From a virus (lineage: Duplodnaviria; Caudoviricetes): 64,000 nt of DNA. This document shows, in pieces, positions 20,818-44,457 of the stretch. The number at the start of each line of letters is the position of its first letter. Position 1 is the first letter of the stretch. The position numbers and the translations under genes are program-made. The stretch spans positions 1,905 through 65,904 of the IMG/VR virus record IMGVR_UViG_3300025084_003138. One strand, given 5' to 3'. Under the pieces are notes generated by a model. That model ran no database searches, had not been told where the DNA came from, and was given only the letters and a program-made list of their open reading frames with translations.

Positions 20818-20883
20818 ATTACCAGTTATTATAATAACGCAAGTGTAAATAAGATATATAACAATAAAGGATGTACAACAATT

Positions 20884-22095: not shown

Positions 22096-23354
22096 TTAAT
22101 TCTTTTTTCACTTGGGAAAAGTTATCACAAATGCATATCGAATTAACAAATTCGTGTAATGCGGCCTGTCCAATGTGTACACGATTTTTTGGTAATAGTC
22201 CGTTAATTAGACCCGACCTTGAATTAGGACAGATTACTTTAGATAAATTTAAAAAGTATTTTCCTAAAGAAGTAATGGATAAAATGGAAGTAATACTATT
22301 TTGTGGCGTACACGGTGATCCCTGTGTTGCAAGAGATGTTTATGAAATTTGTGAATATATTGCCGAAACAAATCCTAATACTTGTGTAAGAATGAATACA
22401 AATGGCGGAATGCGTAATACAGAATTTTGGTCTAAACTAGGTAAACTTTTTGCAAGTAAAGAAAATGGTCCATGGTCTTGGAGAATTACTTTTAGTATTG
22501 ACGGATTAAAAGATACTAATCATTTATATAGGCGTAACGTTGTTTGGGATAAGTTATATGCAAATGTAAAGGCGTATTTAGATACAGGAGCTCAAGCTGA
22601 ATGGGATTTCTTAATATTTAAACATAACGAACATCAACTACAAGAAGCAAAAGACTTATCAGAAGAACTAGGATTTTATGCATTTGTGCCTAAAAAAGCA
22701 TTAGGTGTAGACGATGGCGGATCTTTACGAAAGATGCCCGCAGTATCAAGGACGGGCGATCTTGAATATTACATTGAGGCTCCTGTTGATCCAAAAAATA
22801 GAAATATTGAAACTCCTATAGGCGAAGAAAAAACAGGCCATTGGCAGTTTGATCCAGAAGATTATAAGCGTTTTAGAAAAAATAGAGAAACGCATAATAA
22901 TTATCAGCACATGATAGATAATGCATATAATGTACTTGCTAAAGAAGACAACACACAATTAGATAGTGCAACAATTAAATGTAAAGCAAAAACACGACAA
23001 GAAGGTATTGAGATTTTTGTTGATAATTTTGGAAGAGTAATGCCGTGCTGCTACGCAGGCACTCATTTAGTTGGAACACACGGTGACGGTCAAAGTTTAC
23101 AGTTGCATTATGAAACACAAAAATACGGATGGGAAAAATTTGATCTTGAATTGCATTCTTTAAAAGACATAATGCAGCAAGGTCATTTAGATAGGTTATA
23201 TACCGACTCGTGGTCAAAACCTAGTTGCGGCGATGGTAAAATGGCATACTGTGCAAATATCTGCGGTACTTACAGTAGAGTAGATAGAATTTGGACACAC
23301 GAAGATATGACAGATAAATCCCGTAATTGGCGAAAACCAGCGACTCATGAATAA
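22092..23354 (+). CDS. Radical SAM enzyme with C-terminal twitch/SPASM domain
   Basis: TNSCNAACPMC; FCGVHGDP; FSIDG; C-terminal IKCKAK..VDNFGRVMPCCY..CGDG..YCANICG. Confidence 0.9.
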   Translation: MINSFFTWEKLSQMHIELTNSCNAACPMCTRFFGNSPLIRPDLELGQITLDKFKKYFPKEVMDKMEVILFCGVHGDPCVARDVYEICEYIAETNPNTCVRMNTNGGMRNTEFWSKLGKLFASKENGPWSWRITFSIDGLKDTNHLYRRNVVWDKLYANVKAYLDTGAQAEWDFLIFKHNEHQLQEAKDLSEELGFYAFVPKKALGVDDGGSLRKMPAVSRTGDLEYYIEAPVDPKNRNIETPIGEEKTGHWQFDPEDYKRFRKNRETHNNYQHMIDNAYNVLAKEDNTQLDSATIKCKAKTRQEGIEIFVDNFGRVMPCCYAGTHLVGTHGDGQSLQLHYETQKYGWEKFDLELHSLKDIMQQGHLDRLYTDSWSKPSCGDGKMAYCANICGTYSRVDRIWTHEDMTDKSRNWRKPATHE

Positions 23355-24477
23355 AGATACTTTTTGCGCACTTCCATTTACTGAAATTTTTTTATACCCA
23401 AATGGGGATATAAAACCTTGCTGTTCAGCAGTCATGTCTCTTGGAAATTTAAATACTAATAACATACAAGATATACTACAATCCGATACTGCTAAAGATG
23501 TTAGACAACATATTCTTGACGGTAAATGGCATCCATTATGCGAACAATGCGAACGTCAGGAGCAGCAAGGAGTTAGGTCTGAAAGACAGCCTGAATATAG
23601 TAATGTACTTAGGGACTTAGAATTAACAAATTCAACTTTTAAACTAGAAAGACTTGATTTAAGATGGAGTAATACTTGTAATCTAAGTTGTGTTTATTGT
23701 TATGAAGGCTTTAGTAGTAAGTGGGCAAGTATTAAAGGCATTCCGATTAATGATGTTAAGAAAACTGGTGAAGAAAGTTTATTAGAACTTATTAAAGAAA
23801 ATACAGAGTCAGTTAGTACAGTTATGTTATTAGGAGGTGAACCTCTTTTACAAAAACAAAACTCAATTCTAATTGATATATTACCTAATGTCAATTTTTA
23901 TTGTTTAACTAATCTATCAGTACCGATGAAAACTAATAAAATTGCACAAAAATTAATGGAAAGAGGATCGTGGTCACAATTTGGTGTTAGTATAGAAACT
24001 GTCGGAGATCGATTTGAATATGTAAGACGTAATGCTTCCTGGGACCTGTTTACAGATAATGTAAAATATTTTAACGAAATAGGCAAACCGTTAGAGGCAC
24101 ACTCTTTATACTCTATATATTCTGCATTTAATTTAGTTGAATTTTATGATTTTATATTAGAACATAAGTTTCTTAATATATTTTGGAACTTGTTGGAAAG
24201 TGCAGGCGAAAACAGCAAAGCAAGTGTATTTAGATTACCTAAAAAACTTAAAGATAAAGCAATACAGGAAATTGATCGCTGCGCTGAAAAATACAAAGGC
24301 GAAATTGGGATACACCATTTAGAAGGTTATAAAAATAATTTAGTAAATCAAATAGATAATGAATCTACAACAGAATATCACTTAAATGAAATTAAATCAT
24401 TAGAGCTACTGCAACCATATAATAAAACATTCTCGGATGTTTGGCCTAAGTTATATAAAGGTTTAGTAAAATGTTAG
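23347..24477 (+). CDS. Radical SAM enzyme with N-terminal twitch domain
   Basis: FCALPFTE..GDIKPCC..CEQCERQE..SER; SNTCNLSCVYC; LLGGEP; VSIETVGDRFEYVRRNASW. Confidence 0.9.
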   Translation: MNKDTFCALPFTEIFLYPNGDIKPCCSAVMSLGNLNTNNIQDILQSDTAKDVRQHILDGKWHPLCEQCERQEQQGVRSERQPEYSNVLRDLELTNSTFKLERLDLRWSNTCNLSCVYCYEGFSSKWASIKGIPINDVKKTGEESLLELIKENTESVSTVMLLGGEPLLQKQNSILIDILPNVNFYCLTNLSVPMKTNKIAQKLMERGSWSQFGVSIETVGDRFEYVRRNASWDLFTDNVKYFNEIGKPLEAHSLYSIYSAFNLVEFYDFILEHKFLNIFWNLLESAGENSKASVFRLPKKLKDKAIQEIDRCAEKYKGEIGIHHLEGYKNNLVNQIDNESTTEYHLNEIKSLELLQPYNKTFSDVWPKLYKGLVKC

Positions 24478-31634: not shown

Positions 31635-32477
31635 ATGGCGTTAACTTTAGAAGCTCTAAAAGGGTCTGAATACAAGACTGTAGACTTTTATATGACAAAA
31701 AGCTGTAATAAGAGCTGTCACTATTGCACTGCTTGGACACTCGAAATGCGCAATCTAGATGTAGATATGGACTTTTTACGAAATACAGTAAAATATTTAA
31801 GTCCGTATAAAACCCGTATTTGTTTGTTAGGCGGAGAACCAGGACTTATAAAAAATCTAGATGAAGTAATAGCTGAAATTAAAAAGTATCCGAACTTAGT
31901 AATACAAGTACTTTCTAATAGTTTAGTAAGAAAATTTTATCCGCACGTTTTAGAAGACCCTGATATAATTTATATTGAACACTTGGTCTTAGATTTTTAT
32001 GAAGATCGAATAGAAAAACTAGGTAACTATGATTTTTTTGAACCTAATGAACTAAACAATTATAATCTAATTATTCAAACACCTGGATATTTTGACTATA
32101 GAGACAAACACGACTTGACGTATCTAAAACACAAAAATACAGAATTTAAAGAATACAATTCACGTTCTCCTGATTTCTTTTCAGACCATACCCCTGTACA
32201 AGCGCCAGAGCTTGATAGAAGAATTTGTGCTAAATTTCCACTTGTACCTGTATTTGACTTTGAAATACAAAAAATTAGACATTGTAGCAGAAAAGTAATT
32301 AACGGATCTCGACAGTTTGATGTTACAAAAGAAAATGTTGATAAGATGTTTGCATATAAACTTTTTGAATTTGAAAAGTATTGCAGTGCTTGTATGGACA
32401 TTATTCCTCCAAGACCTGCAGCAAGACGTAATGCAATTACACGTATATTAGAACAAGAGGGCATTTCTATAGAATGA
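31635..32477 (+). CDS. Radical SAM enzyme with C-terminal twitch-like Cys cluster
   Basis: TKSCNKSCHYC; CLLGGEPG; C-terminal ICAKF..RHCS..YCSACMD. Confidence 0.85.
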   Translation: MALTLEALKGSEYKTVDFYMTKSCNKSCHYCTAWTLEMRNLDVDMDFLRNTVKYLSPYKTRICLLGGEPGLIKNLDEVIAEIKKYPNLVIQVLSNSLVRKFYPHVLEDPDIIYIEHLVLDFYEDRIEKLGNYDFFEPNELNNYNLIIQTPGYFDYRDKHDLTYLKHKNTEFKEYNSRSPDFFSDHTPVQAPELDRRICAKFPLVPVFDFEIQKIRHCSRKVINGSRQFDVTKENVDKMFAYKLFEFEKYCSACMDIIPPRPAARRNAITRILEQEGISIE

Positions 32478-33988
32478 AAATATTTTCAGTTGCCGTAAAT
32501 ATACACGACCATAACACATACGACGGTAAATTACACTATCAAGTTGAACGACATAATCGTGTTAAACATAATTTAAATCCTAATAACCCGCATGATTCGG
32601 AACCCAGTCGTGAGTTTTTTCACAAACACTTTAGACCTAATTATGATAATAAAGATCACATGCTTGCATTTACTGTTAGTAATCTTGGACAGGAATTTGT
32701 TAGAGATATATTAGAAGAAACTATAGGCAATTTAGAATTTTTAAATTTTAAACCTAACAACTTATGGGATTGTTACGAAACAGCAGATTATTATTATATA
32801 GATCATCATCAAAGCCATTCGGCGTATGCTTATCTAAGTTCTGGATACAACGAATCTGACATCCTTGCGATTGATGGAAGAGGATGGCAATTTAATTGCA
32901 TCTTTACAGATAAGAACGGAAACATCACAGACTTATCAAATAAAATATCCATAGGCGGATTATGGAATAGATTAGCACAGGATATCGGTTTTGGATATTT
33001 AGGTGCAGGTAAAGCAATGGGCCTTGCCGGATACGGCAAATTCAATGCAGATATAAACAGTATGATAGATGAGTATATGCGCAATCCAAACCATAAACTT
33101 CCTAAGTATGCATACGGTCTTATTGAAACAGTACCAAAAGAAGATATTGCATTTACACTACAACACTATACTTCTATACTAATTAAAGAACATGTATACC
33201 CGTTAAAAACATCTAATAATCTTTGTGTAGCTGGCGGAGTTGCATATAACGGATATATGAACGAAGAGTTTACTAAGCATTATGATAATGTATATGTGCC
33301 TCCGGCTGTCGGCGATGAAGGCCAAGCATTAGGCACTTATATGCATGCCGAGTATGTACTTAATAACAATACACATGTACCTAATGTATATTCTGGTAAG
33401 GAATACGCTGTAGATGCATCTGTGCTTCGAGATTGTACATATAGCTCAATGAAGTTTGAAAATATTATTATTGAAATTGCTCGAGAAATTGCTAAAGGAA
33501 AAATTGTTGGATGGTTTCAAGGTAAAAGTGAAAGCGGTAATAGAGCATTAGGTAATCGAAGCATACTTGCTGACCCGAGAAATCCTAAAATTAAAGATAT
33601 AATAAACAGCAAAATTAAACTACGTGAAGACTTTAGGCCATTTGCACCAAGTGTACTTGAAGAACATTACAAAGACTATTTTGATACTAATCAGCCTAGC
33701 CCGTATATGAGTCGTATTATGCCAGTTACGTCAGATAAAATTCCAGGGGTAACACATGTAGATGGAACAGCACGTATACAAACTGTATCAAAACAACAAA
33801 ATGAAAAATATTATTCCTTAATTAAGGAATTTGGAAATTTAACTGGAATACCTATGTTGCTTAACACTAGTTTCAACAGTCAAGAGCCGATTGTAGAAAC
33901 TCCTGAAGACGCTATTGCTACGTTTAACAAGTGTGGATTAGACATATTAGTAATTGGCAATTATATAGTAAGGAAAACAAATGATTGA
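32474..33988 (+). CDS. Carbamoyltransferase (NodU/CmcH/TobZ family)
   Basis: Kae1-like HHQSHSAYAY, IDGRG, GKAMGLAGYG, AGGVAYN, VPPAVGDEG; YrdC-like GKSESGNRALGNRSILADP, REDFRPFAPSV, THVDGTARIQTV, LLNTSFN. Confidence 0.95.
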   Translation: MKIFSVAVNIHDHNTYDGKLHYQVERHNRVKHNLNPNNPHDSEPSREFFHKHFRPNYDNKDHMLAFTVSNLGQEFVRDILEETIGNLEFLNFKPNNLWDCYETADYYYIDHHQSHSAYAYLSSGYNESDILAIDGRGWQFNCIFTDKNGNITDLSNKISIGGLWNRLAQDIGFGYLGAGKAMGLAGYGKFNADINSMIDEYMRNPNHKLPKYAYGLIETVPKEDIAFTLQHYTSILIKEHVYPLKTSNNLCVAGGVAYNGYMNEEFTKHYDNVYVPPAVGDEGQALGTYMHAEYVLNNNTHVPNVYSGKEYAVDASVLRDCTYSSMKFENIIIEIAREIAKGKIVGWFQGKSESGNRALGNRSILADPRNPKIKDIINSKIKLREDFRPFAPSVLEEHYKDYFDTNQPSPYMSRIMPVTSDKIPGVTHVDGTARIQTVSKQQNEKYYSLIKEFGNLTGIPMLLNTSFNSQEPIVETPEDAIATFNKCGLDILVIGNYIVRKTND

Positions 33989-34799
33989 TAGGACTGTTGT
34001 AAAATACTATGAAAATATTTTAAAAACATCTAACTCTAACGTTAACTTAGATATTTTATCTACAATATTAAATTGCATCGAACACGATAAAGACAACGAA
34101 CTTTTGAAAATTATATTAAAATTATCTCATCCGTCTATTGATGATACTTATCTTTTTAATGTAATAAATCTTATTAAAGATATGCCTGAAATAAAAACTG
34201 ATATTTTAGATTCTGTTAGCAGTAATCAAGTTGCATCAAAATATGCATTGATAGATGCAGTAAACAACTTAAAGATTTTAAATAAGGATTCGGTTGTTGT
34301 TATCTGGGGCAGCTGGTATGGCAGTATTCTTATACCAGCACTTACTAATAAAGTTAAAAAAATAATTTGTATAGATATAGATAATAATCCTTTACAAATT
34401 GCTAAGAACAGATTATTTAATGAGTACACTAACATTGAATATATTTGTGACAATATTTTTAAAAAATATCGTAATGTTTATATAGAAACAGATTTAATTA
34501 TTAATCCAAGTTGCGAACATATGAAACCTATGTATGATTGGAAGTGGTTTGACGAAGGTGCTATGAGTCAAGATTCGGGCGATGTATTTAAAACACCTAA
34601 ACTTTCGAACAATTGTCATTTTGCATTTACATCAAATAATATGTTTGATATCAAAGACCATATTAATTGTGTAAATAATTTAGAAGAGTTTAAAGACCAG
34701 TTGCCGTTACGAGCTGAAGTTTTACACGAAGAAGAAGTGACAGATACTAGGGGATCTAGATACTTATTAGTAGGTAAGTTTAATCCTCTAGTGTACTAG
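33981..34799 (+). CDS. Class I SAM-dependent methyltransferase-like protein
   Basis: Motif I variant 'VVVIWGSWYGSIL', acidic strand-2 end 'IICIDID', 'LIINPSCEHM'. Confidence 0.6.
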   Translation: MIDRTVVKYYENILKTSNSNVNLDILSTILNCIEHDKDNELLKIILKLSHPSIDDTYLFNVINLIKDMPEIKTDILDSVSSNQVASKYALIDAVNNLKILNKDSVVVIWGSWYGSILIPALTNKVKKIICIDIDNNPLQIAKNRLFNEYTNIEYICDNIFKKYRNVYIETDLIINPSCEHMKPMYDWKWFDEGAMSQDSGDVFKTPKLSNNCHFAFTSNNMFDIKDHINCVNNLEEFKDQLPLRAEVLHEEEVTDTRGSRYLLVGKFNPLVY

Positions 34800-34846: not shown

Positions 34847-34902
34847 TACAACATATTGTATTTTTTTTAGCAAAATATAACTAAAAAATACAATATGTTG
34901 TA
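34847..34902. terminator. 20-bp perfect AT-rich inverted repeat between convergent operons (putative bidirectional terminator or cruciform)
   Basis: tacaacatattgtatttttt (34847-34866) is the exact reverse complement of 34883-34902, with a 16-nt loop; lies between the stop codons at 34799 (+) and 34941 (-). Confidence 0.55.
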
Positions 34903-34940: not shown

Positions 34941-37175
34941 CTATATAATGTTTTGATCTGTAACTTCATCTTGTTTTTTTGCAGTTTTGTCCCAAGATGC
35001 AAATAATTTTTTATCAGCATCTGTTAGCTCTTTAGGAATATAATATTTTTCTAATTCGGGAAAAACGTCAAATAAGTGAGATTCCCACTTAGTTCCTTTG
35101 TAGTATTCGTCAGATTTTAATAGGTATGCAAATACATCCTGTATATCAATATTAGGGTCTGCAGGCATTCTTAATGCAGCTTGTATATCTGGCCAATCTT
35201 TATACTTGGGTATTAGGTTGGTTTTTATTTCTATTGGTAAATTACGAACTTGTAAAGCCCCAGGGTTTTCAACAAACGCCCAATTTAGCTGATCGATGCA
35301 TGGGTTTTCTTTACACCAATCGATTATTTCATAAAATCTCATAACACTAAGGAACGACACTAATCCGTTAAAGTCAACTACTACGTTAGGATGTTTTTTA
35401 ACTAATTCAATGTTTTCTACTACTTCGTTCCAGTCTGTTCTTCTACGCATATATTCAATAACAGGTCCAATGCCGTCTATTGATGCAACTATTGTTACCC
35501 TATCAAAATGTGGAATATATTTAAATATATTATGTTTGCCTGCTTTAGTTTTTGTTAAGTTAGTTTGGTATTTAATTCTTATTTTATCAGCGTGTCCTGT
35601 TTTAATTATAGCATCTAACATTTCATAATGTTTTTTCATAATCAAAGGCTCGCCGCCTATTATTTTAATACTTTTTATGTATTGTGCCATTTCAACGATC
35701 TGCTCAGTTACTCCGGCAGTTTTATCCTTCATAACTTGTGCGTTTCTTGCATCAACGGCCGGAGACTGTTTGCCAAATATGTTGTCACTCCACACTCCGT
35801 TTTTTGCAACTTGCATACGTGTTGTAGAATTATCGTGCATACACATAAAGCAGTCTAAGTTGCATTCCGACCCATAAATTTTTAATTGTACTTCAAATAT
35901 TCTACCAGCACCTCGCAAGGTAAACTTACCAGTTTCTTTAAATTTTGTTACTTGTCTTTCAATTTTATTCCAAAATACTGCATCATTAGTATGAATCTTC
36001 ATACAGTTAGTTCTTCTAGATCTTCCATAATTAGCTTCGTCACTACGACACCGTTGACACCATTTGTCTACTGCTTTTAACTTAGAACCCGGTGTGGTCA
36101 TTTCTCTACGTAGATCATTCATGTATTCACTGTCTTCCATCCACTCTTTTAATGGAACTTCTTCTACGCTTACTCCGGATGGTTCGCCAAAACAACATGC
36201 TTGGTACTGTCCGTCTAGTTCTGAATATATTTGTGTGAACGGAATTGTACAAAAGTAAATATCTTTATCCTTTGCTTGCGTTACTATTGATCCTTCTTTG
36301 GCAGCAATTTCTTTACCTTCATCGTCTAATTTTTCCCACCAAGCGTCTGTATTTACAAAACCTGGCTCGGACCGATCACCAGGGCCACCTTTTGTTAAAT
36401 ACTCCGGTAAATCAGGTTTTGGTAAGGGATAGTCAAATGCCCATGCCTTTTCATGACACCAGAAGCAAGTGTTACAGGTGTGTTCAAAATTATTAGTTTG
36501 TCTAGCTGTTCCTACACAAGACCTTGTTAACGGATATAAAGTTTCCATTAAATTATGGTCTTTAAAAACTCCAGCAACAAATTTTTTATCTACATTAGCG
36601 TATACTTGATAGATATTTAACCAGTAGTCTTTAGCATAGGATCTAAAGTTTTCGACTTCAGGGTGTTCTTTATCTCTTCTTCGTTCTGCTTTTTCATAAA
36701 ATCCTGAAGATAACATTTCATTCGCCGGCGGATTTCTTGTCATACCATCGAGTCTTATTGCACCTGGATGTTTTTTCATTACATTCCAGTTTATTGTATC
36801 AACTTGCATAATCTTTGAAACCTGTGTTCTACGCATGCCGTTAAACTGACGGATTTTTTTAATTGCTTTATCAACTTTTCTATGGCTTAGAAAATCCTCA
36901 GTTTTATCGTTAAAATCAAATATCTGTGTATTTCTAATATTGTTCTGCGGAAATTCTTTTTGCATCCAGTTAACAATATCAACAGCAGCATCAGCATCTA
37001 ACGGAGCATTTAGGTCTCTACAGGTTACTGGAATTACTTCTATTTGGGGGAAATATTTACTTACTAGATATAGCAAGGATGCACTGTCGAGCCCTCCTGA
37101 TAATGAAATTACACATTTTTCTGGAATTTTGTCAGGAAAAAAGTTTATAGTTTGATTATTATATGTAAGTTTCAT
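34941..37175 (-). CDS. Fusion of a QueC-like PP-loop ATPase domain to an N-twitch radical SAM enzyme
   Basis: N-terminus: ISLSGGLDSASL and TRSCVG..TCNTCFWCHEK (QueC-like Zn site). A Pro-rich linker is followed by FCTIPFTQ..QACC..CQRC..SRR, SECNLDCFMC, IIGGEP and ASIDGIGPVIEYMRRRTDW. Confidence 0.85.
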   Translation of the reverse strand: MKLTYNNQTINFFPDKIPEKCVISLSGGLDSASLLYLVSKYFPQIEVIPVTCRDLNAPLDADAAVDIVNWMQKEFPQNNIRNTQIFDFNDKTEDFLSHRKVDKAIKKIRQFNGMRRTQVSKIMQVDTINWNVMKKHPGAIRLDGMTRNPPANEMLSSGFYEKAERRRDKEHPEVENFRSYAKDYWLNIYQVYANVDKKFVAGVFKDHNLMETLYPLTRSCVGTARQTNNFEHTCNTCFWCHEKAWAFDYPLPKPDLPEYLTKGGPGDRSEPGFVNTDAWWEKLDDEGKEIAAKEGSIVTQAKDKDIYFCTIPFTQIYSELDGQYQACCFGEPSGVSVEEVPLKEWMEDSEYMNDLRREMTTPGSKLKAVDKWCQRCRSDEANYGRSRRTNCMKIHTNDAVFWNKIERQVTKFKETGKFTLRGAGRIFEVQLKIYGSECNLDCFMCMHDNSTTRMQVAKNGVWSDNIFGKQSPAVDARNAQVMKDKTAGVTEQIVEMAQYIKSIKIIGGEPLIMKKHYEMLDAIIKTGHADKIRIKYQTNLTKTKAGKHNIFKYIPHFDRVTIVASIDGIGPVIEYMRRRTDWNEVVENIELVKKHPNVVVDFNGLVSFLSVMRFYEIIDWCKENPCIDQLNWAFVENPGALQVRNLPIEIKTNLIPKYKDWPDIQAALRMPADPNIDIQDVFAYLLKSDEYYKGTKWESHLFDVFPELEKYYIPKELTDADKKLFASWDKTAKKQDEVTDQNII

Positions 37176-37197
37176 ACTGTATCCTTTGATTATTTTA

Positions 37198-37205
37198 GTA
37201 CTTAT
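37198..37205 (-). promoter_or_regulatory. Late-promoter-like motif ATAAGTAC
   Basis: The plus-strand gtacttat reads ATAAGTAC on the minus strand, ~23 nt upstream of the 37175 start; one mismatch from the ATAAATAC seen before structural genes. Confidence 0.4.
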
Positions 37206-37224
37206 GTTATAAGTTAACTGCCTA

Positions 37225-37914
37225 TTAAAGACTTGACACGTTGTTTAATGCCCATTTCTTTTCTTGACACCACCAACATTCTCCGCAGTTGCCGATTGGT
37301 TCAGTACAGGAATTAGTTTTTTGTAATAAGTCTTGTTCGTTGAAATCGTAATAACATTGAATAATAAATCTTTTATCGATTCCTACAAACGGTGCTTTTG
37401 GAGTGTTAGAAAATTTTTCTATTTCTTCCCATAGTTCGTGACCCGGTCTTCTAAAAACTCCCCAACTTCCTCCATCTGATCTTAGATTAAATGACTGTTG
37501 TATTTCTGTTGGCGGCCCTAAACATAATGCATTTACTAAGACGTCTATAATTTTATTTTTTGCTAATTTTTCACTAAGTGGACGTATATAACTATTTTTA
37601 TCTAAGCCTTTTTCTTTAATTCCTTTAGTATTAAATACAACAGAAATTGGCCAATGTAGTTTAACTGTAGGAAATTTATTTTGTAAATATTTTATAATCT
37701 CTGGTAAACCTGCAGAATCACCCGAACACCATATATCGTAACCATTAAATGGTTGTATCTGTATATTTAAATTTTTTTCTTTTATTGTGTTTGCTAGAAG
37801 AAAGCATAATAGTGTACTATCAGCACCGCCTGACATAGATATGCCAATAGTCTTGTTATTAAATACACTATCGCTTAAAATTTCAACAGTTCCAAATTTA
37901 TTTTTATATTGCAT
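37225..37914 (-). CDS. Stand-alone QueC-like PP-loop (adenine nucleotide alpha-hydrolase) protein
   Basis: ISMSGGADSTLL; C-terminal TNSCTEPIGNCGECWWCQEKKWA Zn-site pattern; paralogous to the N-terminal domain of 34941..37175. Confidence 0.75.
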   Translation of the reverse strand: MQYKNKFGTVEILSDSVFNNKTIGISMSGGADSTLLCFLLANTIKEKNLNIQIQPFNGYDIWCSGDSAGLPEIIKYLQNKFPTVKLHWPISVVFNTKGIKEKGLDKNSYIRPLSEKLAKNKIIDVLVNALCLGPPTEIQQSFNLRSDGGSWGVFRRPGHELWEEIEKFSNTPKAPFVGIDKRFIIQCYYDFNEQDLLQKTNSCTEPIGNCGECWWCQEKKWALNNVSSL

Positions 37915-38977
37915 GTTTTATTGTATCTATTATTGTTTTAATTTCGTTATCAGTTAACCACGCATGTATGGGCAACGATAAAACAGTGTTAGATGCCGCC
38001 TTAGACGCTGTACAATTGTCACTGCGTATGGTTGCACTGTTGTACATATTATTTGCGCTCAAAGGTGTTTCGTAGTGTATGCTGGCGTTTAGTGCGTTCT
38101 TTACCCGTTTACGAGTGTCCTTGTCCTCAAACCGTATAACATATTTGTGATAATTATTATCTAATCCATTTGTAACCTTAGGAGTTATAACAGGCAAGTT
38201 TGCAAAAGCACTATTGTACTGATGTGCAATAGACTGACGCTTGGTTTGATTTTGCTCCATACTTTTCATACGCTGTTCTATAATACGAGCATTGAGAACA
38301 TACATACGGCTATTATATCCTAGTATATCAAACGTTTTATCTTTACCGTGTCTACGAATCATCTTAAGACGCTTTGCAATATTGCTATCGTCTGTTAGTA
38401 CAACACCACCGCCGTTAATGCCTGCGATAACTTTATTACTGTTAAAACTGAATATACTGCAATCGCCGATCGTTCCTGCACGTACTCCGTCTAAACTACT
38501 ACCTAACGCTTGTGCTGCATCTTCGATAAACAGTATGTTGTGTTCCTTACAGAACGCTTGTAGTGCAGTTGTGTCTTCCATAGCACCAAACAAGTGTACA
38601 TACACGATAGCCTTTACACGGTCGCTGTACATACGCTGTACGCTGTCTAAGCTCATTTGATAAGTATCTAAATTTATATCGCAAAACACAGGAGTAGCAC
38701 CTACCATATCTACACAACTAGCACTACTGATCCAACTAAAGTCTGTTACTAGTACTTCATCACCTGGACCAATGCCATGTGCTATTAGTGAAAAGTGCAA
38801 TGCGTCTGTAGCACTGCTCACGCTAACGCAGTGTTTGCGCCCTAGCTTCTCAGCAAAATTGCGCTCAAAATCTTCATTGTTTTCGTAGTTCATTTGACTC
38901 ATAAATTGGTCAAAGATTTCTAAGTATGTTTGTTTGTTTTCTTGATACTCTCGGTCCCACGCATCATATGCTGTCAT
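37904..38977 (-). CDS. DegT/DnrJ/EryC1/StrS PLP-dependent sugar aminotransferase
   Basis: SATDALH, GPGDEV, SWISSASC, PVFCDI, IEDAAQALG, FSFNSNK (PLP lysine), GYNSRM, VLSLPIH. Confidence 0.95.
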   Translation of the reverse strand: MTAYDAWDREYQENKQTYLEIFDQFMSQMNYENNEDFERNFAEKLGRKHCVSVSSATDALHFSLIAHGIGPGDEVLVTDFSWISSASCVDMVGATPVFCDINLDTYQMSLDSVQRMYSDRVKAIVYVHLFGAMEDTTALQAFCKEHNILFIEDAAQALGSSLDGVRAGTIGDCSIFSFNSNKVIAGINGGGVVLTDDSNIAKRLKMIRRHGKDKTFDILGYNSRMYVLNARIIEQRMKSMEQNQTKRQSIAHQYNSAFANLPVITPKVTNGLDNNYHKYVIRFEDKDTRKRVKNALNASIHYETPLSANNMYNSATIRSDNCTASKAASNTVLSLPIHAWLTDNEIKTIIDTIKHAI

Positions 38978-40202
38978 TGTAATAGCTCTCTAGTTCTGGA
39001 TATAATTTAAAAATATCTGTTTTATAATATTCGTCTGATTGTTTAATATAGTTTATAGCTGCTATAAACTTTTTCTTATCTCCCTTCATTGCAAGTGCGT
39101 TAACAATAATTGGATAATTACGATACTTCTTACGTAATTTCTTTTTAAGTTTTTTAGGTAAGTGTCTAACATGCAACTCATCAGGATCGTCGACTACAAA
39201 ACAGAAATATTCTAAATTTTTTCTATCACAAAAATTTTGTAGTTTGTCGTATTTTAATACACTTAATAATGATAATGTTGAAAACACACCCATTTTAACA
39301 TTTCTATAACTTCTAAGAGTGTTTAGGTTACTAACAATAGTATGCCAGTCTGATCTTCGACGTATATAATCATTATATTTTCCAAATCCGTCAAGCGAAG
39401 CACTAATATTTAATTGTCTAAATTTATCAACAAAGTCTAAAATATTATACTTAGTAGTTCCTAGTACTGTTAAATTACTATTCATTTCAAGAATAATGTT
39501 TTTTGAGTGACCGCTTTCGACTAGTCTGTTAAGAAAATCAAACTGTTTTTTCATTACAAAGGGCTCGCCGCCTTGTAGCAAAAAAGTATGTATATACGGT
39601 GCAAGTTCAACTAGTTCGTCTATAGTGTTGCTTTTAGAAGATTTTATATTATTAGGAGAATCTTGGTCAAATGTTTTTATGTACTTTCTATTATCAAGTT
39701 TTTTAAACATTAGTTGTCTAGTAGACGATGCACCTGGTTGACACATATAACAATCGAGATTACATTGATTACCGAAAACTCTTGCTTGTAATACTAAGCA
39801 TCTTTCTGTAATTGTATATTCCTGCGTAGGATCAAACGAAAGTACTTGATCTATACAAGAAAAGTCTTGGTTAATCTTAATGGTTTCTAGCAATCTTTTG
39901 ACATGATGCTGTCTGTCAGATTCTCCGTAATTTGCTTCTTGTTCTATACAGCGTCGACATTGACTGTTTAAAACAGGAGTATCAACAATTGTTTCGTCTA
40001 GCATTTCAATTCTTGCATCAGTTAACAATTTAGAATTTAACCATTCTTTAGGTGTAGTTGTTGATGTGTTAAGATCGGCGTCTTCACCAATACAACATAC
40101 TTTGTAATCACCATTTGGATTAGTATATATGTGATCAAACAGTCTAGGACAAAACCAAATAGAGCCGTCTTTAATTTTATTTAATAATGTCTCGCGGTTC
40201 AT
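38964..40202 (-). CDS. Radical SAM enzyme with N-terminal twitch domain
   Basis: WFCPRLF..YKVCC..CRRC..SDR; GNQCNLDCYMC; LQGGEPF; ASLDGFGKYNDYIRRRSDW (close to the rSAM half of 34941..37175). Confidence 0.9.
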   Translation of the reverse strand: MNRETLLNKIKDGSIWFCPRLFDHIYTNPNGDYKVCCIGEDADLNTSTTTPKEWLNSKLLTDARIEMLDETIVDTPVLNSQCRRCIEQEANYGESDRQHHVKRLLETIKINQDFSCIDQVLSFDPTQEYTITERCLVLQARVFGNQCNLDCYMCQPGASSTRQLMFKKLDNRKYIKTFDQDSPNNIKSSKSNTIDELVELAPYIHTFLLQGGEPFVMKKQFDFLNRLVESGHSKNIILEMNSNLTVLGTTKYNILDFVDKFRQLNISASLDGFGKYNDYIRRRSDWHTIVSNLNTLRSYRNVKMGVFSTLSLLSVLKYDKLQNFCDRKNLEYFCFVVDDPDELHVRHLPKKLKKKLRKKYRNYPIIVNALAMKGDKKKFIAAINYIKQSDEYYKTDIFKLYPELESYYNDSI

Positions 40203-40984
40203 TTATTCTCAGACCCTAACAGTGCATGTTGCCGATTAAATTCTGCCTCCATCTTTTTACGAGGCATCTTATGCCAATCAAGCAAAGATTGGGCTTTATG
40301 CCCCCAATATTCTTTTTTTACACGTTCTTGTGTGTGTTTTTTATCTGGAGTAGTTAGCTTAAAGTCTACATTTTTTCTAAGTAACGGACTATCAGGATTA
40401 AATCCTCTGTTTGTGTTTACTAATAATAAACTAAAATCTTCTTGCTTTGCAATTTCGATAGCACGATCTACTTCGTGTTCGTTGTATCCAAATATAATAT
40501 ATTGCCAAACAATTACATGACCTAGATCTCTGCCCTGCTTCATTCGTTTCCATACATCGTCAAACTTAGAACCAATGCGATATAGTTCGCTCTTCTCGTC
40601 AATTCCATCTACACCAAAATACCAAGCATTTTCACCTACACCGTAACTGTATGCTTCGTCCCACCATGCATCACTCTTGCCACTTCCTACAGTAGCAATA
40701 CGAACTGCTTTTTGGTTACCGTTACACATTTTTAAAAGATTTAAAAATTTTGGATGATATATGGGATCAGATATTTGTCCACAAAATGTTAATCCGTAAT
40801 CGTAATAGTCTAGAATTTTTTTAAAGTTATGTTCTTCTAAATCAAAACTACGTTTAATTTGTGCTTGGCTAGATGTTTTTTGTCTAATACATTGCGGACA
40901 TTTAAAAATACAACGATGAGAAGCATCGATGTTAGGCCTAAACATTCTTTGTTTTTCTACATATTCATCAGTAATCCTTGACAT
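40199..40984 (-). CDS. Short radical SAM core lacking an auxiliary domain
   Basis: SHRCIFKCPQC; FCGQISDP; FGVDG..LYR; WQYIIFGYNEH; aligns by eye to the core of 22092..23354. Confidence 0.85.
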   Translation of the reverse strand: MSRITDEYVEKQRMFRPNIDASHRCIFKCPQCIRQKTSSQAQIKRSFDLEEHNFKKILDYYDYGLTFCGQISDPIYHPKFLNLLKMCNGNQKAVRIATVGSGKSDAWWDEAYSYGVGENAWYFGVDGIDEKSELYRIGSKFDDVWKRMKQGRDLGHVIVWQYIIFGYNEHEVDRAIEIAKQEDFSLLLVNTNRGFNPDSPLLRKNVDFKLTTPDKKHTQERVKKEYWGHKAQSLLDWHKMPRKKMEAEFNRQHALLGSENK

Positions 40985-41315
40985 TTGCTTGTCCTATTAC
41001 TTCTTGTTTTTCTTCTTCCTTTAATTTCTTCATATCTACATCAATGCCGCATTTCTTTTTACACATATAAGATGCATTCTCTGGATCATTTAGTAAAGTT
41101 TGAAAAAAGTTCTCCCATTGGTCAGAGACAAATATGTCGTCTAAACAACTATTATTTTCAACGGCTAATACTTCGTCCTTTAGTCCGCACTCAGTTACAT
41201 ACCGATGCACAGGAGGATCGTCCATCCAACAACATGGTAACATATAACCGTCTGATGTATATGCTGCTCCTTTATTGTTTCGATCAAATTGCAAACATTT
41301 AGGTTGTATTTTCAT
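40968..41315 (-). CDS. Stand-alone twitch/SPASM Fe-S domain protein
   Basis: IQPKC..TSDGYMLPCCW..MCKKKCG; matches the C-terminal domain pattern of 22092..23354. Confidence 0.75.
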   Translation of the reverse strand: MKIQPKCLQFDRNNKGAAYTSDGYMLPCCWMDDPPVHRYVTECGLKDEVLAVENNSCLDDIFVSDQWENFFQTLLNDPENASYMCKKKCGIDVDMKKLKEEEKQEVIGQANVKDY

Positions 41316-41662
41316 AATTGACTATCGCCTTTTTCAACTCTATAGTTATCTTGTGTGCTATCTGGTGTACTTACTTCTATTATAGTACCTTCTTCAACAC
41401 ACATAAGCTGATGCGGCAGCATTGGAGTAATATGCTTAGTGTCGCCGATATTTAATGTTTCTACATTTATAGTTGCAGAAGTTGTGTCAATTGTTTTAAG
41501 TATAAAGCTACCACTAAGCACATGCCATGTTTCATCTTTTTCTTTGTGGAGATGCATACTAAATTTAGAACCTTGATTAAAGTTTAATAATTTCCCGCAA
41601 TATAGATTATTAGAAGCAAATATTTTTTCAGTACCCCAACCCTTTTTAACAATTTCTGTCAT
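41312..41662 (-). CDS. Cupin-fold sugar isomerase/epimerase-like protein
   Basis: KKGWGTE, FSMHLHKEKDETW, ITPMLPHQL, IIEVSTPD cupin metal-binding pattern. Confidence 0.8.
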   Translation of the reverse strand: MTEIVKKGWGTEKIFASNNLYCGKLLNFNQGSKFSMHLHKEKDETWHVLSGSFILKTIDTTSATINVETLNIGDTKHITPMLPHQLMCVEEGTIIEVSTPDSTQDNYRVEKGDSQL

Positions 41663-42470
41663 TTATATAATCCGTTATTGTAGTCCAGTTCATGTCAACT
41701 GTAGAAGATAGCTTGTCTAAGTTAGCACAGGTGTATGCTTGATATTGATTTTTTACCTCTGCTGGTATAGTTATATATCTAATTTTAGCATTATATTTTT
41801 TGATAATGGTTTGTGCAACATCTTCAAAACTAGTTGCTGTTCCGGTTCCTACATTGTATATATTACTAAATGTGCTATTAAACATTTTAGTGTGTAACAT
41901 ACACACATCTTCTACACATACAAAGTCTCTTTTATAATTATTACTATTTTCGAATAACGATATAACTCCGTCATATTTTGCTTGATTTATAAATTTAGTA
42001 TAAGGACTTGCCATATTACCTTTGTGTTCTTCACCAGGGCCGTATACATTAAAGTATCGAAATCCTTGTATAATAATATTACAAGTGTTAATAGTTTTAG
42101 ATACATACTGATCAAACAAATATTTTGACCAAGCATAAGGACTTTGTGGAGATAGATATCCGTCTTCTGTAAAATGAGTAGTTGTTCCGTATACACTGGC
42201 ACTTGATGCATATTGAAAATTAGTATTACTCTTCTTACACAATTGTAGAAGATCTACACTAAATTGATAATTTTGTTTCAAAATTTGGTATACATCAGTA
42301 TAGGTAGTGGAACTAATAGCACCTAAATGTATACACCAGTTATATCCTCGAGTGTCAGGCATAGAATTAGATTTCCATTCCCATCCGTCAACTTCGTGTC
42401 CTTGTTCTTTTAAAAATTTAAGAATGTTTGATCCTATAAATCCTTCGTGTCCTGTAACTAGTATTTTCAT
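41646..42470 (-). CDS. hldD: ADP-L-glycero-D-manno-heptose 6-epimerase-like SDR
   Basis: ILVTGHEGFIGSN, HLGAISST, YASSASVYG, YAWSK (YxxxK), GFRYFNVYGPGEEHKGNMAS, RDFVCVEDV; adjacent to hldE. Confidence 0.85.
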   Translation of the reverse strand: MKILVTGHEGFIGSNILKFLKEQGHEVDGWEWKSNSMPDTRGYNWCIHLGAISSTTYTDVYQILKQNYQFSVDLLQLCKKSNTNFQYASSASVYGTTTHFTEDGYLSPQSPYAWSKYLFDQYVSKTINTCNIIIQGFRYFNVYGPGEEHKGNMASPYTKFINQAKYDGVISLFENSNNYKRDFVCVEDVCMLHTKMFNSTFSNIYNVGTGTATSFEDVAQTIIKKYNAKIRYITIPAEVKNQYQAYTCANLDKLSSTVDMNWTTITDYINDRNC

Positions 42471-43609
42471 TTACTTGCTTTTATAATATCTGTTGTTGAA
42501 TATCCTACTATTGTAGGAACAATATGTACATTAGTTAAGTCGTGTCCGACAACTTGTTCTACTGTATAATCGCCGCCTTTTACAATTACGTACGGCTTTA
42601 ATTCTTTAATTAATTCGTACGGAGTATCTTCATCAAATACAACTACTTGATCTACCCACGGTAATATCTCTAATTGACTAATACGCTTTGCTTGGTTATT
42701 AATAGGACGACTACTGCCCTTTAACCGTTTTACACTAGCATCTGAATTAATACCTACAATTAGTTTAGTGCCGAGTCCTTTTGCTTCTGCTAAGAGCTCA
42801 AAATGACCTTTGTGTAGTATATCAAATACTCCGTTAGTAAACACTATACAATCTTCTAAGTCACTTATAGTAAGTGTATATGTGCCTGTATGTTGTACTG
42901 CTTGCCTAGAACCTTTAATAGCAATTTCTAAACATTTTTTATAAGCATATTCTTTTGTAAGTCCATATACAAATGCTGCTAAGAAGCAGTCGCCTGCACC
43001 TGTAACATCTGATACTTGTAAAGTTTCTACAGGTATGTCATAACTTTCTTTATCAATAATAGCATGTACATTATTTCCAGCATGTGTAACAATAATATTA
43101 CCTTGCCATAGATCAAAGTCTAATTCTGTAAATTCTTTTTCGTTAGGTTTGACAAGCCAAGCACCTTCGTAAAGAGTATAGTGGTCTTTCGGATCTACTA
43201 TAACTTTACAACCAAATTTATTAATGTGTTTAATAATGTCATATGATTGAGATAATACACCTTTGGCATAATCGCTTAGTACAACGTAATCGTACTGTTG
43301 AAAATCTTTATTAAGTATATCGCCTAATATTTCATCACCATTTGCGTGATAGTCGTTATCTATACGTGTGACGTAATGCCCATCACACATCACACGAGTC
43401 TTTACACTCTTTGGTTGATCATATTCATATAGTTCAACATCAACACCTAAACTTTTAAGATTGTTGTATACTAGTCCTGCACCGCCTAGTGATTCTTTTT
43501 CTTCCTTATATGTTACAACAGGCACTGGTGCTTCAGGACTTATACGAGTACTAGTACCGTATATGTATTTGTCAATTATTATATCACCGAGGACTAATAC
43601 TTTTATCAT
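42467..43609 (-). CDS. hldE: Bifunctional heptose-7-phosphate kinase / heptose-1-phosphate adenylyltransferase
   Basis: PfkB part LGDIIIDKY..RISPEAPVPVV..GGAG..SDYAKG..DPK..KPNE..DVTGAGD; cytidylyltransferase-like part VFTNGVFDILHKGH..VGINSDASVKRLKG..RPIN..VKGGDY. Confidence 0.95.
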   Translation of the reverse strand: MIKVLVLGDIIIDKYIYGTSTRISPEAPVPVVTYKEEKESLGGAGLVYNNLKSLGVDVELYEYDQPKSVKTRVMCDGHYVTRIDNDYHANGDEILGDILNKDFQQYDYVVLSDYAKGVLSQSYDIIKHINKFGCKVIVDPKDHYTLYEGAWLVKPNEKEFTELDFDLWQGNIIVTHAGNNVHAIIDKESYDIPVETLQVSDVTGAGDCFLAAFVYGLTKEYAYKKCLEIAIKGSRQAVQHTGTYTLTISDLEDCIVFTNGVFDILHKGHFELLAEAKGLGTKLIVGINSDASVKRLKGSSRPINNQAKRISQLEILPWVDQVVVFDEDTPYELIKELKPYVIVKGGDYTVEQVVGHDLTNVHIVPTIVGYSTTDIIKASK

Positions 43610-44457
43610 TTTAGTTCTTTTACAGCACCTAAAATTGCAGTTATGTCCGGTTCTTTGATATCACGCTTCCAATATATAGTTCCACCGTCTGTTCCCGGAT
43701 CTTTCCGTTCATAAATTACATCCTTGCCATAATACTTGCACTCTTGAAATATACGAGGAGCAGGATCAAAAGTTTCTTTAGTATATACATAAGTTTCAAA
43801 TAAGCTCATAAGATTTTCCACAGGTACAAATATATTATTATGCTTTACATTAACATACTTTGCGTCATATGTCAAGATACCGTGATCCGGATATTGATCA
43901 ATAACTTTTTCAACACTAGCATAGTATTTGTCATTTGTACCAAGAAATAAATGCTTAAACTGTATGTTATCTTTGTAAGGCTTGTATATGCTAAAGTTAA
44001 TAGTCTTTTCGAAGTGAGCACCTACACCATTAGGGTATACGTCTGTATCGCATAGATCTACTATTTGTTTAGGATTGTAAAATTCAACAGCCTTAGGATA
44101 ACCGTCTACATGATTTTCTGAATATACACTAATAACATCTCCGTCAAACAAGCGATATAATATACGTTTTTGTACGTCAGTATAATCATTAAAACTCTGC
44201 CAACTAAGTGTCATCATACTACGCCCCATAATAAGTGTAGTATCATTTAGTGCCGGAACATAATCGTCGATAAGAATATTATGACAATGTATATATTTGT
44301 TTTTAATTGAAGTTAGATACTCATCTTTAGTAAAGTTACGATGTGTTATAACAACAACCTGTGCAGGATAACCAGCATTATTAAGCATGTCACAGTATTC
44401 ATAACTGTAATAGAATAGGCCGTCTACCGGTTTGCTTGTAACTACAATATTAATCAT
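43606..44457 (-). CDS. Hypothetical protein, first gene of the heptose operon (possibly a divergent GT-B-like protein)
   Basis: Clean 283-aa ORF; the C-terminal 'FETYVY..DPAPRIFQECKYYGKDVI' loosely recalls GT-B donor-binding (E..a.G.pvi) motifs; weak. Confidence 0.6.
   Translation of the reverse strand: MINIVVTSKPVDGLFYYSYEYCDMLNNAGYPAQVVVITHRNFTKDEYLTSIKNKYIHCHNILIDDYVPALNDTTLIMGRSMMTLSWQSFNDYTDVQKRILYRLFDGDVISVYSENHVDGYPKAVEFYNPKQIVDLCDTDVYPNGVGAHFEKTINFSIYKPYKDNIQFKHLFLGTNDKYYASVEKVIDQYPDHGILTYDAKYVNVKHNNIFVPVENLMSLFETYVYTKETFDPAPRIFQECKYYGKDVIYERKDPGTDGGTIYWKRDIKEPDITAILGAVKELK

Follow-up and report, generated by a model that had tools for sequence, protein, structure and literature searches.

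A single gene in a 64,000-nt stretch of viral DNA (positions 1,905 to 65,904 of IMG/VR record IMGVR_UViG_3300025084_003138; hereafter the window) encodes a QueC-like PP-loop domain fused to an N-twitch radical S-adenosylmethionine (rSAM) enzyme. This 744-aa protein is a genuine fusion of two enzymes. Its PP-loop part is very probably catalytic and, judging from its motifs, is not a preQ0 synthase; the two parts very probably cooperate within a conserved set of biosynthetic genes. The reading that we favor, which has in our judgment about an even chance of being right and draws on analogy with related enzymes, is that the fusion couples ATP-dependent amide-type chemistry with a radical reaction on an amino-sugar-like intermediate.

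The fusion is a genuine two-enzyme protein

An earlier note, made from the sequence alone, had placed two open reading frames in this region, and both are there: one of 744 aa (34941-37175, minus strand) and one of 229 aa (37225-37914, minus strand). Their features are as follows.

34941 to 37175, minus strand: fusion protein, QueC-like PP-loop domain plus N-twitch radical SAM; a single open frame of 744 aa
36435 to 37175, minus strand: PP-loop (QueC-like) domain, residues 1-247; defined by the AlphaFold2 (AF2) model, structure matches, and PF06508
37083 to 37100, minus strand: SGGLDS pyrophosphate-binding loop, residues 26-31; motif invariant in 15/15 relatives
36456 to 36518, minus strand: four-Cys site C220-x13-C234-x2-C237-x2-C240, followed by HEKAWAF; E242, W245, A246, and F247 belong to the family signature
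36375 to 36434, minus strand: fusion junction, a DYPLPKP linker and then the conserved N-terminus of the rSAM partner, LPEYLTKGGPGD; from comparison with split relatives
34941 to 36374, minus strand: N-twitch radical SAM part, residues 268-744; NF033640
36048 to 36254, minus strand: N-terminal twitch Cys cluster C309, C327, C328, C373, C376; invariant in 21 homologs
35841 to 35864, minus strand: CxxxCxxC radical SAM cluster motif CNLDCFMC, residues 438-445; invariant in the alignment
37225 to 37914, minus strand: free-standing QueC-like paralog, 229 aa; SGGADS (residues 28-33), C-x6-C-x2-C-x2-C, then QEKKWA

Two details of the earlier description needed correction. The cysteines, formerly given as C-x-C-x2-C-x2-C, are spaced C-x13-C-x2-C-x2-C in the fused domain and C-x6-C-x2-C-x2-C in the neighbor. 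The junction, which occupies residues 248-267 and reads DYPLPKP-DLPEYLTKGGPGD, had been called a Pro-rich linker; a short linker does exist, only about 8 residues long (DYPLPKP), but the remainder, LPEYLTKGGPGD, is the conserved N-terminus of the rSAM partner. Within the rSAM part, GGEP is found at residues 507-510.

The possibility that the fusion reflects a missed stop or another artefact is contradicted by several independent data sets. Logan contigs from independent runs and studies span positions 35900-37300 without indels, and a contig from a diverged strain crosses this interval with 49 substitutions and 0 gaps. The same single frame is present in many IMG/VR viral contigs, and a search for the architecture in other phages found 16 protein clusters with the same full-length layout, 60-89% identical over the full length and 54-91% over the N-domain. 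The fusion of a PP-loop domain to a full twitch rSAM is thus real.

Outside these viral contigs the fusion was not encountered: the GTDB genome contigs searched held no relative of it, and in the cultured-phage collection there were only distant rSAM matches and one distant PP-loop relative, from Ralstonia phage RsoM2USA. This relative, gp134 of a cultured 344-kb jumbo phage (L061; MG752970.1, 90121-90780), is annotated as hypothetical and belongs to the viral QueC-like family described below (SGGADS ... SC..CGHCFQCDERRWAF; E of 1.2e-11 to the family profile). The gene downstream of gp134 encodes no rSAM. The sole “bacterial” record with the rSAM clade, labelled Saprospiraceae bacterium (L050; GCA_028262585.1), carries the whole phage module next to collagen-repeat fiber-like genes, and this contig is probably phage DNA binned into a metagenome-assembled genome.

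The two parts recur as fused, adjacent, or separate genes

The earlier note had read the fusion as a Rosetta-stone link between the two activities. We mapped the window proteins onto 46 related viral loci and inspected the reading frames at the junction, and the link emerged much strengthened. The parts are fused in the window and in L004-L010, L013, L021, and L033. They are encoded by two genes in different frames, with anything from a 7-nt overlap to a 5-nt gap, in L011, L012, and L014-L017, and by separate genes some kilobases apart within one cluster in L022-L034 and L038-L043; in L038-L040, 2 nt separate the end of an N-twitch rSAM gene from the PP-loop gene. Where the pair is split, the PP-loop protein has the C-terminus ...WAFDLxWEE... 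before its stop, and the rSAM protein starts with M..(D)LPE(F/Y/H)LTKGGPGD. The junction sequences are not alike among the fused lineages.

On a maximum-likelihood tree built from 51 sequences of the rSAM part, the pair must have changed between fused and unfused at least 5 times, and well-supported branches force every one of these changes. Phage recombination could inflate the event count, but the tree excludes a single origin for the fused state. The PP-loop gene lies on the same strand in 33 of the 46 loci of the rSAM clade, and 3 of the remaining 13 are cut where the PP-loop gene would lie. Because related phages carry the two enzymes fused, adjacent, or further apart, the PP-loop protein and the twitch rSAM very probably cooperate. 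A predicted complex of the two domains returned an ipSAE of 0.00 in two runs, a “no answer” that is evidence neither way.

Other fused forms exist within the same gene set. An exhaustive profile search added two proteins. In one, of 458 aa (P0178), the same type of PP-loop domain (43% identity) is joined with a short rSAM core (34% identity) like the 261-aa rSAM described below; the other, of 498 aa (P0214), carries two PP-loop domains in tandem. In two metagenome proteins of 961-966 aa (P0113 and P0117), a member of the same rSAM clade, 41-43% identical with its N-terminal extension included, has a carbamoyltransferase fused to its C-terminus. The latter part is 57% identical to the carbamoyltransferase encoded in the window at 32474-33988, and these proteins are a second Rosetta-stone link within the module. 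When longer proteins with the PP-loop domain were sought separately, the 16 rSAM fusions were the only ones recovered, which is weak evidence against other partners.

The PP-loop domain belongs to a viral QueC-like family

The AF2 model of the PP-loop domain (predicted local distance difference test [pLDDT] of 90.5) has a PP-loop Rossmann fold. Its VIA-align Z scores were 14.0 for Cap9 (root mean square deviation of 2.8, 166 aligned), 13.8 for TilS, 13.3 and 12.5 for QueC, 12.9 for NcsA, 12.6 for TtuA, 12.3 for LarE, and 12.2 for QatC. In the QueC match with a Z of 13.3, model residues 18-250 align with chain residues 3-213, and the chains of the QueC family (Cap9, QueC, and QatC) are those that align through the C-terminal Cys site. 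The comparison with QueC, TtuA, and LarE suggested in the earlier note therefore cuts both ways: QueC-family chains come near the top, but TtuA and LarE score almost as high. As modeled, the fold assigns the domain to the PP-loop superfamily and favors the QueC branch without proving it.

Profile searches point in the same direction. PF06508 is the sole Pfam family that matches all 15 homologs (E of ≤1; best E of 1.2e-6), followed by NAD_synthase in 11/15, and with Cap9, QueC, and QatC among the top structural matches it bears out the earlier assignment of the domain as QueC-like. The PF06508 scores of 19.3 bits (residues 1-255) and 21.3 bits (the 229-aa neighbor) fall under the gathering cut-off of 22 bits, and the PHROG 1550 family, “QueC-like,” is matched weakly. 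Profile searches of the PDB by sequence aligned the P-loop region only. In the ESM Atlas, the neighbors of the domain are clusters made up of viral proteins alone, with PF06508 present in 21-93% of their members, and the exhaustive profile search gathered a family of 1,084 clusters at 50% identity, 693 of them with an E of ≤1e-10. This QueC-like family appears to be virus specific.

Among 140 diverse members, the family signature comprises SGGxDS, P149, R167, K197, T-x-S-C220, and C234-x2-C237-x-W-C240-x-E242-x2-W245-A. K197 and the four cysteines are conserved in 100% of them, E242 in 99%, and the positions of SGGxDS in 93-98% each. SGGxDS is also kept in 15/15 relatives of the fused domain and in 51/51 members of the neighbor's family. 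Since the ATP loop is so strongly conserved, the PP-loop part is very probably catalytic rather than a dead domain. The QueC-type C-terminal four-Cys site probably binds zinc.

The near equality of the structural scores raises the alternative that the domain inserts sulfur or modifies nucleic acids, as do TtuA, NcsA, ThiI, LarE, or TilS, four of which (TilS, NcsA, TtuA, and LarE) score nearly as well as the QueC-family chains. The only invariant cysteines, however, are the four C-terminal ones; both the three-Cys core site and the LarE-type Cys are absent. Because there are no conserved core cysteines, thio chemistry of the TtuA or LarE type, which the earlier note had left among its options, is unlikely. 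Moreover, the domain has only ~250 residues and no RNA-binding domain, and its genomic context is a DegT/carbamoyltransferase module. We regard this alternative as very improbable.

The PP-loop domain is not a canonical QueC

QueC has a signature tested by mutagenesis that consists of YxQxHxxE, VPxRN, YPDC, and C-x8-C-x2-C-x2-C (PMC13329287). In a regular-expression scan, Escherichia coli QueC held the full signature, whereas YxQxHxxE, VPxRN, and YPDC occurred in 0/15 members of the fused family and 0/51 of the neighbor's family; only an “RN” remnant was left, in 12/15 homologs of the fused domain. The C-x8 spacing of the zinc motif was likewise found in 0/15 and 0/51, being replaced by x13 in the fused family and x6 in the neighbor's, while the four-Cys site itself is kept. 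The viral domain thus retains the ATP loop and the Cys site of QueC, and its substrate pocket differs. When the PP-loop family was aligned to E. coli QueC with hhalign, the P-loop alone aligned, with a probability of 28%.

The genomic context agrees with the motifs. Five larger records, four of them fragments, contained no QueD (PTPS, PF01242) and no TGT/DpdA (PF01702), with positive controls (FolE and QueE were not searched); the five records include a 170.8-kb genome rated 100% complete (G001), which carries the PP-loop gene. Because all QueC substrate motifs are absent and neither QueD nor TGT/DpdA accompanies it, the PP-loop part is, by these sequence criteria, not a preQ0 synthase. The departure from canonical QueC that the earlier note had proposed is therefore upheld by the missing substrate motifs, but the contrast on which it had relied, EK in place of Arg after the last Cys, is weak: a basic residue occupies the same +3 position as the Arg of E. 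coli QueC, and 4/15 homologs have Arg there.

These results bear directly on the idea that the fusion works in 7-deazaguanine chemistry, as an analog of QueC, DpdC, or Cap9 acting on 7-carboxy-7-deazaguanine (CDG) or preQ0, with the rSAM tailoring the deazapurine for DNA or for a conjugate. PF06508 as the best Pfam family and the weak PHROG 1550 match speak for it, as does the fact that QueE, an rSAM, and QueC are consecutive in the preQ0 pathway. Set against this are the loss of every substrate motif and of the C-x8 spacing, the P-loop-only alignment to E. coli QueC, the Pfam scores below the gathering cut-off, and the lack of QueD and TGT/DpdA in the five records, the complete genome included; we give it the slightest chance of being correct.

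The WbpG-type N-acetyl-sugar amidotransferases (PF06508 cluster 5) are marked by an SGGxDSxY loop, CxxC(x)6CxC, and a YDC triad (PMC13329287). The loops here read SGGLDSAS and SGGADSTL, there is no CxxC(x)6CxC and no Y.D[CS], and an NCBIfam search at an E of ≤0.01 gave no match to the WbpG-type amidotransferase family.

The radical SAM part is a full-length N-twitch enzyme

NF033640 (N_Twi_rSAM) matches residues 308-712 with an E of 2.4e-85 and 287.1 bits against a cut-off of 170, over model positions 4-398 of 398. From the conserved cysteines, both Fe-S sites of the rSAM part are predicted to be intact. Its AF2 model (pLDDT of 87) finds its nearest solved cores in BlsE (Z of 10.6) and viperin (10.1), with SkfB, NifB, and anSME at ~9.4-9.8; a sequence profile of this part found nothing in the PDB.

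The window also encodes five further full N_Twi_rSAM paralogs (NF033640, 222-322 bits) and two partial ones, at 18057-24477 and 38964-40202. This is an unusually dense expansion for one uncharacterized subfamily.

The fusion occupies a variable slot in a conserved module

The fusion and its neighbor lie in a module with a recurrent gene order: a 283-aa protein, a 115-aa twitch protein, a 261-aa rSAM, a 412-aa N-twitch rSAM in some loci, a DegT aminotransferase, a slot, and a 280-aa rSAM, after which come a TobZ/NodU-type carbamoyltransferase, a 272-aa methyltransferase-like protein, and a protein with a weak GT2-like C-terminus. In the window, its members are as follows.

43606 to 44457, minus strand: 283-aa protein of unknown family, the first gene of the module; 49-83% identity across loci
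40199 to 41315, minus strand: stand-alone twitch protein (115 aa) and rSAM core (261 aa), the scaffold pair; conserved in ~31 loci
38964 to 40202, minus strand: second N-twitch rSAM, 412 aa, accessory; NF033640 at 278.8 bits, in some loci only
37904 to 38977, minus strand: DegT/DnrJ/EryC1 aminotransferase, directly upstream of the slot; PF01041, E of 2.3e-88
31635 to 34799, plus strand: right arm, with the 280-aa rSAM, TobZ/NodU-type carbamoyltransferase, and 272-aa methyltransferase-like protein; conserved in ~20 loci

The DegT protein is 69-87% identical in closer relatives and 46-55% in distant module types, and the carbamoyltransferase (32474-33988) matches its family with an E of 1.7e-69. 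The 272-aa protein has only faint methyltransferase matches in the PDB, and the 283-aa protein has no Pfam, NCBIfam, or PDB match, singly or as a profile. In L022-type loci and in G001, the twitch protein and 261-aa rSAM pair directly adjoins the PP-loop gene.

The 229-aa neighbor had been described as the same PP-loop domain standing alone. It is instead a distant paralog from a sister subfamily of ~50 homologous clusters; hhalign relates it to the family of the fused domain with a probability of 99.2% and an E of 2.5e-19, at 24% identity. In L055, L057, and L059, this subfamily alone comes after DegT. The place of the fused pair is taken there by one of two sets, either a nitroreductase-family protein with two unknown proteins or a twitch protein with a short rSAM. 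On both sides of the slot, the scaffold genes of these loci are 52-86% identical (67-86% without the 272-aa gene). These alternative fillings mark the stretch from DegT to the 280-aa rSAM as a slot whose contents vary within a conserved module, and the fused pair and the neighbor occupy it. In several of the module types, and at all PPL2-type loci examined, a QueC-like gene lies directly after DegT; the L022 and L038 types have the PP-loop gene elsewhere in the cluster.

DegT, carbamoyltransferase, and PP-loop genes co-occur in 5/5 larger records tested, and in the complete 170.8-kb genome they do so while dispersed. This co-occurrence despite dispersal points to dependence at the level of the pathway, beyond mere adjacency. 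In that genome (G001), a minimal unit of two twitch proteins, a core of the 261-aa rSAM type, and a PP-loop protein stands alone at 84.9-87.2 kb of contig C1 (L060). DegT and the carbamoyltransferase lie ~27-30 kb from it, and rSAMs of the fusion clade lie near 158-162 kb.

Besides DegT and the carbamoyltransferase, weak GT2 and GT9 matches and HldE and HldD give the window a sugar-type context. The module itself contains an insertion (41312-43609, minus strand) that encodes an HldE-like kinase/adenylyltransferase, an HldD-like epimerase, and a WbuC-like cupin. None of the 46 related loci carries this HldE/HldD/cupin set, apart from one weak SDR match; the insertion is peculiar to the window, and ADP-heptose supply is an add-on of this phage that lies outside the core pathway.

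The 141-nt gap between the convergent genes that end at 34799 and 34941 contains an AT-rich, near-perfect inverted repeat at ~34848-34900 (ACAACATATTGTATTTTTT ... AAAAAATACAATATGTTGT), which by its sequence looks like a bidirectional terminator. A consensus scan missed it because the stem has no G-C pairs.

The source record is a 65.9-kb viral contig with an estimated completeness of 18%. The island is flanked by tail and virion genes, and the module adjoins tail-fiber genes. An assignment to the pelagimyophages was dropped, and the cultured phages with the best relatives of two flanking proteins are jumbo myophages (280-490 kb), among them PA5oct, Atu_ph07, and Phosso. The fusion is encoded by an uncultured marine jumbo myophage.

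Proposed chemistry and alternatives

QueC adenylates a carboxylate and then an amide carbonyl; NH3 displaces AMP, and elimination then yields the nitrile (PMC13329287). In Cap9 and QatC, the activation is the same and the nucleophile is an amine of a protein, so that conjugation takes place at protein N-termini (PMC13329287; bioRxiv 10.1101/2025.04.06.647259). By analogy, the PP-loop domain of the fusion would adenylate a carbonyl, either a carboxylate or a carbamoyl/amide, on a small-molecule intermediate of the module, and nitrogen would then replace AMP in amide, amidine, or nitrile chemistry. The twitch rSAM would act by radical chemistry on that intermediate or the one after it, and H abstraction may lead to oxidation, epimerization, dehydration, or C-C chemistry, and the fusion would serve to hand over the intermediate between the domains. 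Because the partners are a DegT enzyme and a carbamoyltransferase, two options come forward. In one, an amide would be formed at a carboxylate, possibly with the amine made by DegT; in the other, a carbamoyl group would become a cyano or guanidino group. The product of the module would most likely be a modified amino sugar or cyclitol that decorates the virion or the host surface. Here we infer the substrate class, the precise reaction, and which of the two steps comes first.

A number of observations weigh against this reading. The nearest structural neighbors of the PP-loop domain (Cap9, TilS, QueC, NcsA, and LarE; Z of 12.3-14.0) are effectively tied; therefore, the fold alone fixes no chemistry. 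In the same way, the rSAM core matches enzymes that act on nucleotides or nucleosides (BlsE, viperin, and MoaA) and on peptides (SkfB and anSME) about equally, and with small-molecule and peptide enzymes tied, the rSAM reaction cannot be named. The module conserves no enzyme that forms a sugar acid. Heptose is not a general substrate, because HldE, HldD, and the cupin occur only in the window's version of the module. At 10 more distant loci of the rSAM clade, no PP-loop gene was found within the fetched flanks. Finally, a protein target such as a tail fiber is possible, given that Cap9 and QatC act on proteins and that peptides are frequent substrates of SPASM/twitch rSAMs.

This last point opens a different scenario, in which the PP-loop domain would ligate a carboxylate group to a protein amine or amidate a protein carboxylate, and the rSAM would modify the same polypeptide, for example a tail-fiber or virion protein. 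Cap9 is the top structural match and QatC is among the others, both of them enzymes that conjugate to protein N-termini; the fold search with the rSAM part retrieved the peptide maturases SkfB, CteB, SuiB, and anSME; and the module always adjoins tail-fiber-like or collagen-repeat genes. Yet DegT/DnrJ/EryC1 and TobZ/NodU enzymes are known for sugar, cyclitol, or small-molecule substrates. In addition, we saw neither a precursor peptide nor a recognition element for ribosomally synthesized and posttranslationally modified peptides, and the residues with which Cap9 holds deazaguanine (a Y-x-D type motif) are absent. On balance, we consider a protein target unlikely, though a rival to be taken seriously.

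The carbamoyltransferase suggests another variant, in which the PP-loop domain would dehydrate the carbamoyl product to a cyano group or aminate it to a guanidino or isourea group, with the rSAM acting on a neighboring carbon. HypF/HypE (ATP-dependent dehydration to cyano) and argininosuccinate synthetase (amination to guanidino) provide analogies. The carbamoyltransferase is present in all five PP-loop records even when the genes are dispersed, and the same rSAM clade is fused to the PP-loop domain in some lineages and to the carbamoyltransferase in others. The second step of QueC, moreover, activates an amide carbonyl (PMC13329287). This reading is argued by analogy, however, and TobZ/NodU enzymes usually O-carbamoylate, giving groups that are normally end products. 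We therefore see action on the carbamoyl group as rather improbable.

Returning to amide-type chemistry coupled to a radical step, a bolder form of this proposal can be stated, to which we assign a similarly small likelihood. The viral family would be a new ATP-dependent class of nitrogen-installing enzymes with obligate rSAM partners, converting the carbamoyl or carboxyl group of a DegT-aminated sugar to a cyano, cyanamide, amidine, or guanidino group. This would yield a building block for glycans that is not yet known in viruses and that dresses tail fibers or remodels the host surface.

Relation to known systems

QueC (PF06508 cluster 1; PDB 3BL5 and 2PG3) shares with the viral domain the PP-loop Rossmann fold, SGGxDS, a four-Cys site ending in C-x2-C-x2-C, and the basic residue at +3; the structural alignment (Z of 13.3 and 12.5) reaches the domain end, and in the preQ0 pathway QueC acts after a radical SAM enzyme, QueE. 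In contrast, the viral domain has invariant residues of its own (R167, K197, E242, and W245) and a Cys spacing of x13 or x6 rather than x8, is fused to an rSAM other than QueE, and keeps no company with QueD or TGT. Cap9 of type IV CBASS and QatC of QatABCD (PDB 9NTO and 9Y01) illustrate how the QueC scaffold can employ an amine nucleophile other than ammonia and serve outside tRNA or DNA modification. These, however, are bacterial defense proteins that act with CDG on the N-terminus of a partner protein, whereas the viral genes sit in a DegT/carbamoyltransferase/rSAM module and lack the deazaguanine-binding residues.

The rSAM part is a full-length member of NF033640, with CxxxCxxC and the N-terminal auxiliary-cluster cysteines, but it adds a conserved LTKGGPGD N-terminal extension and, in the lineage of the window, the fused PP-loop domain. 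We know of no member of the NF033640 subfamily with a known reaction. In aminoglycoside pathways, the BtrN/BtrR logic consists of a twitch rSAM dehydrogenase followed by a DegT-family aminotransferase. Similarly, the split twitch rSAM of 115 aa plus 261 aa lies upstream of DegT across module types; the pair is directly adjacent to DegT in loci of the L004, L014, and L055 types, and the 412-aa rSAM lies between them in the window. Unlike the BtrN/BtrR pathways, the viral module adds QueC-like ATPases, further rSAMs, and a carbamoyltransferase and adjoins tail-fiber genes, and the likeness is one of gene order.

Literature searches on the architecture and on the function of N-twitch rSAMs found no description of either, in keeping with the earlier view that no characterized enzyme is built in this way. 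While the two superfamilies are known, the literature searched describes neither the apparently virus-specific QueC-like clade nor its repeated fusion to a twitch rSAM nor its placement in the module.

Implications

Large islands rich in radical SAM genes adjoin the tail-fiber genes of marine jumbo and T4-like phages. Through the fused, split, and alternative fused forms, a QueC-like ATPase, a twitch rSAM, and a carbamoyltransferase are firmly linked by genetics, and this link among three enzyme types shows experimenters which proteins to purify together; gp134 of RsoM2USA is a possible experimental handle on the viral QueC-like family. The QueC scaffold, recently found to be repurposed in CBASS and Qat defense, has a further large radiation, apparently virus specific, without the deazaguanine signature. 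Should the module make a new sugar or protein modification that sits on virions or host envelopes, this would matter for host recognition and for superinfection exclusion among abundant ocean phages.

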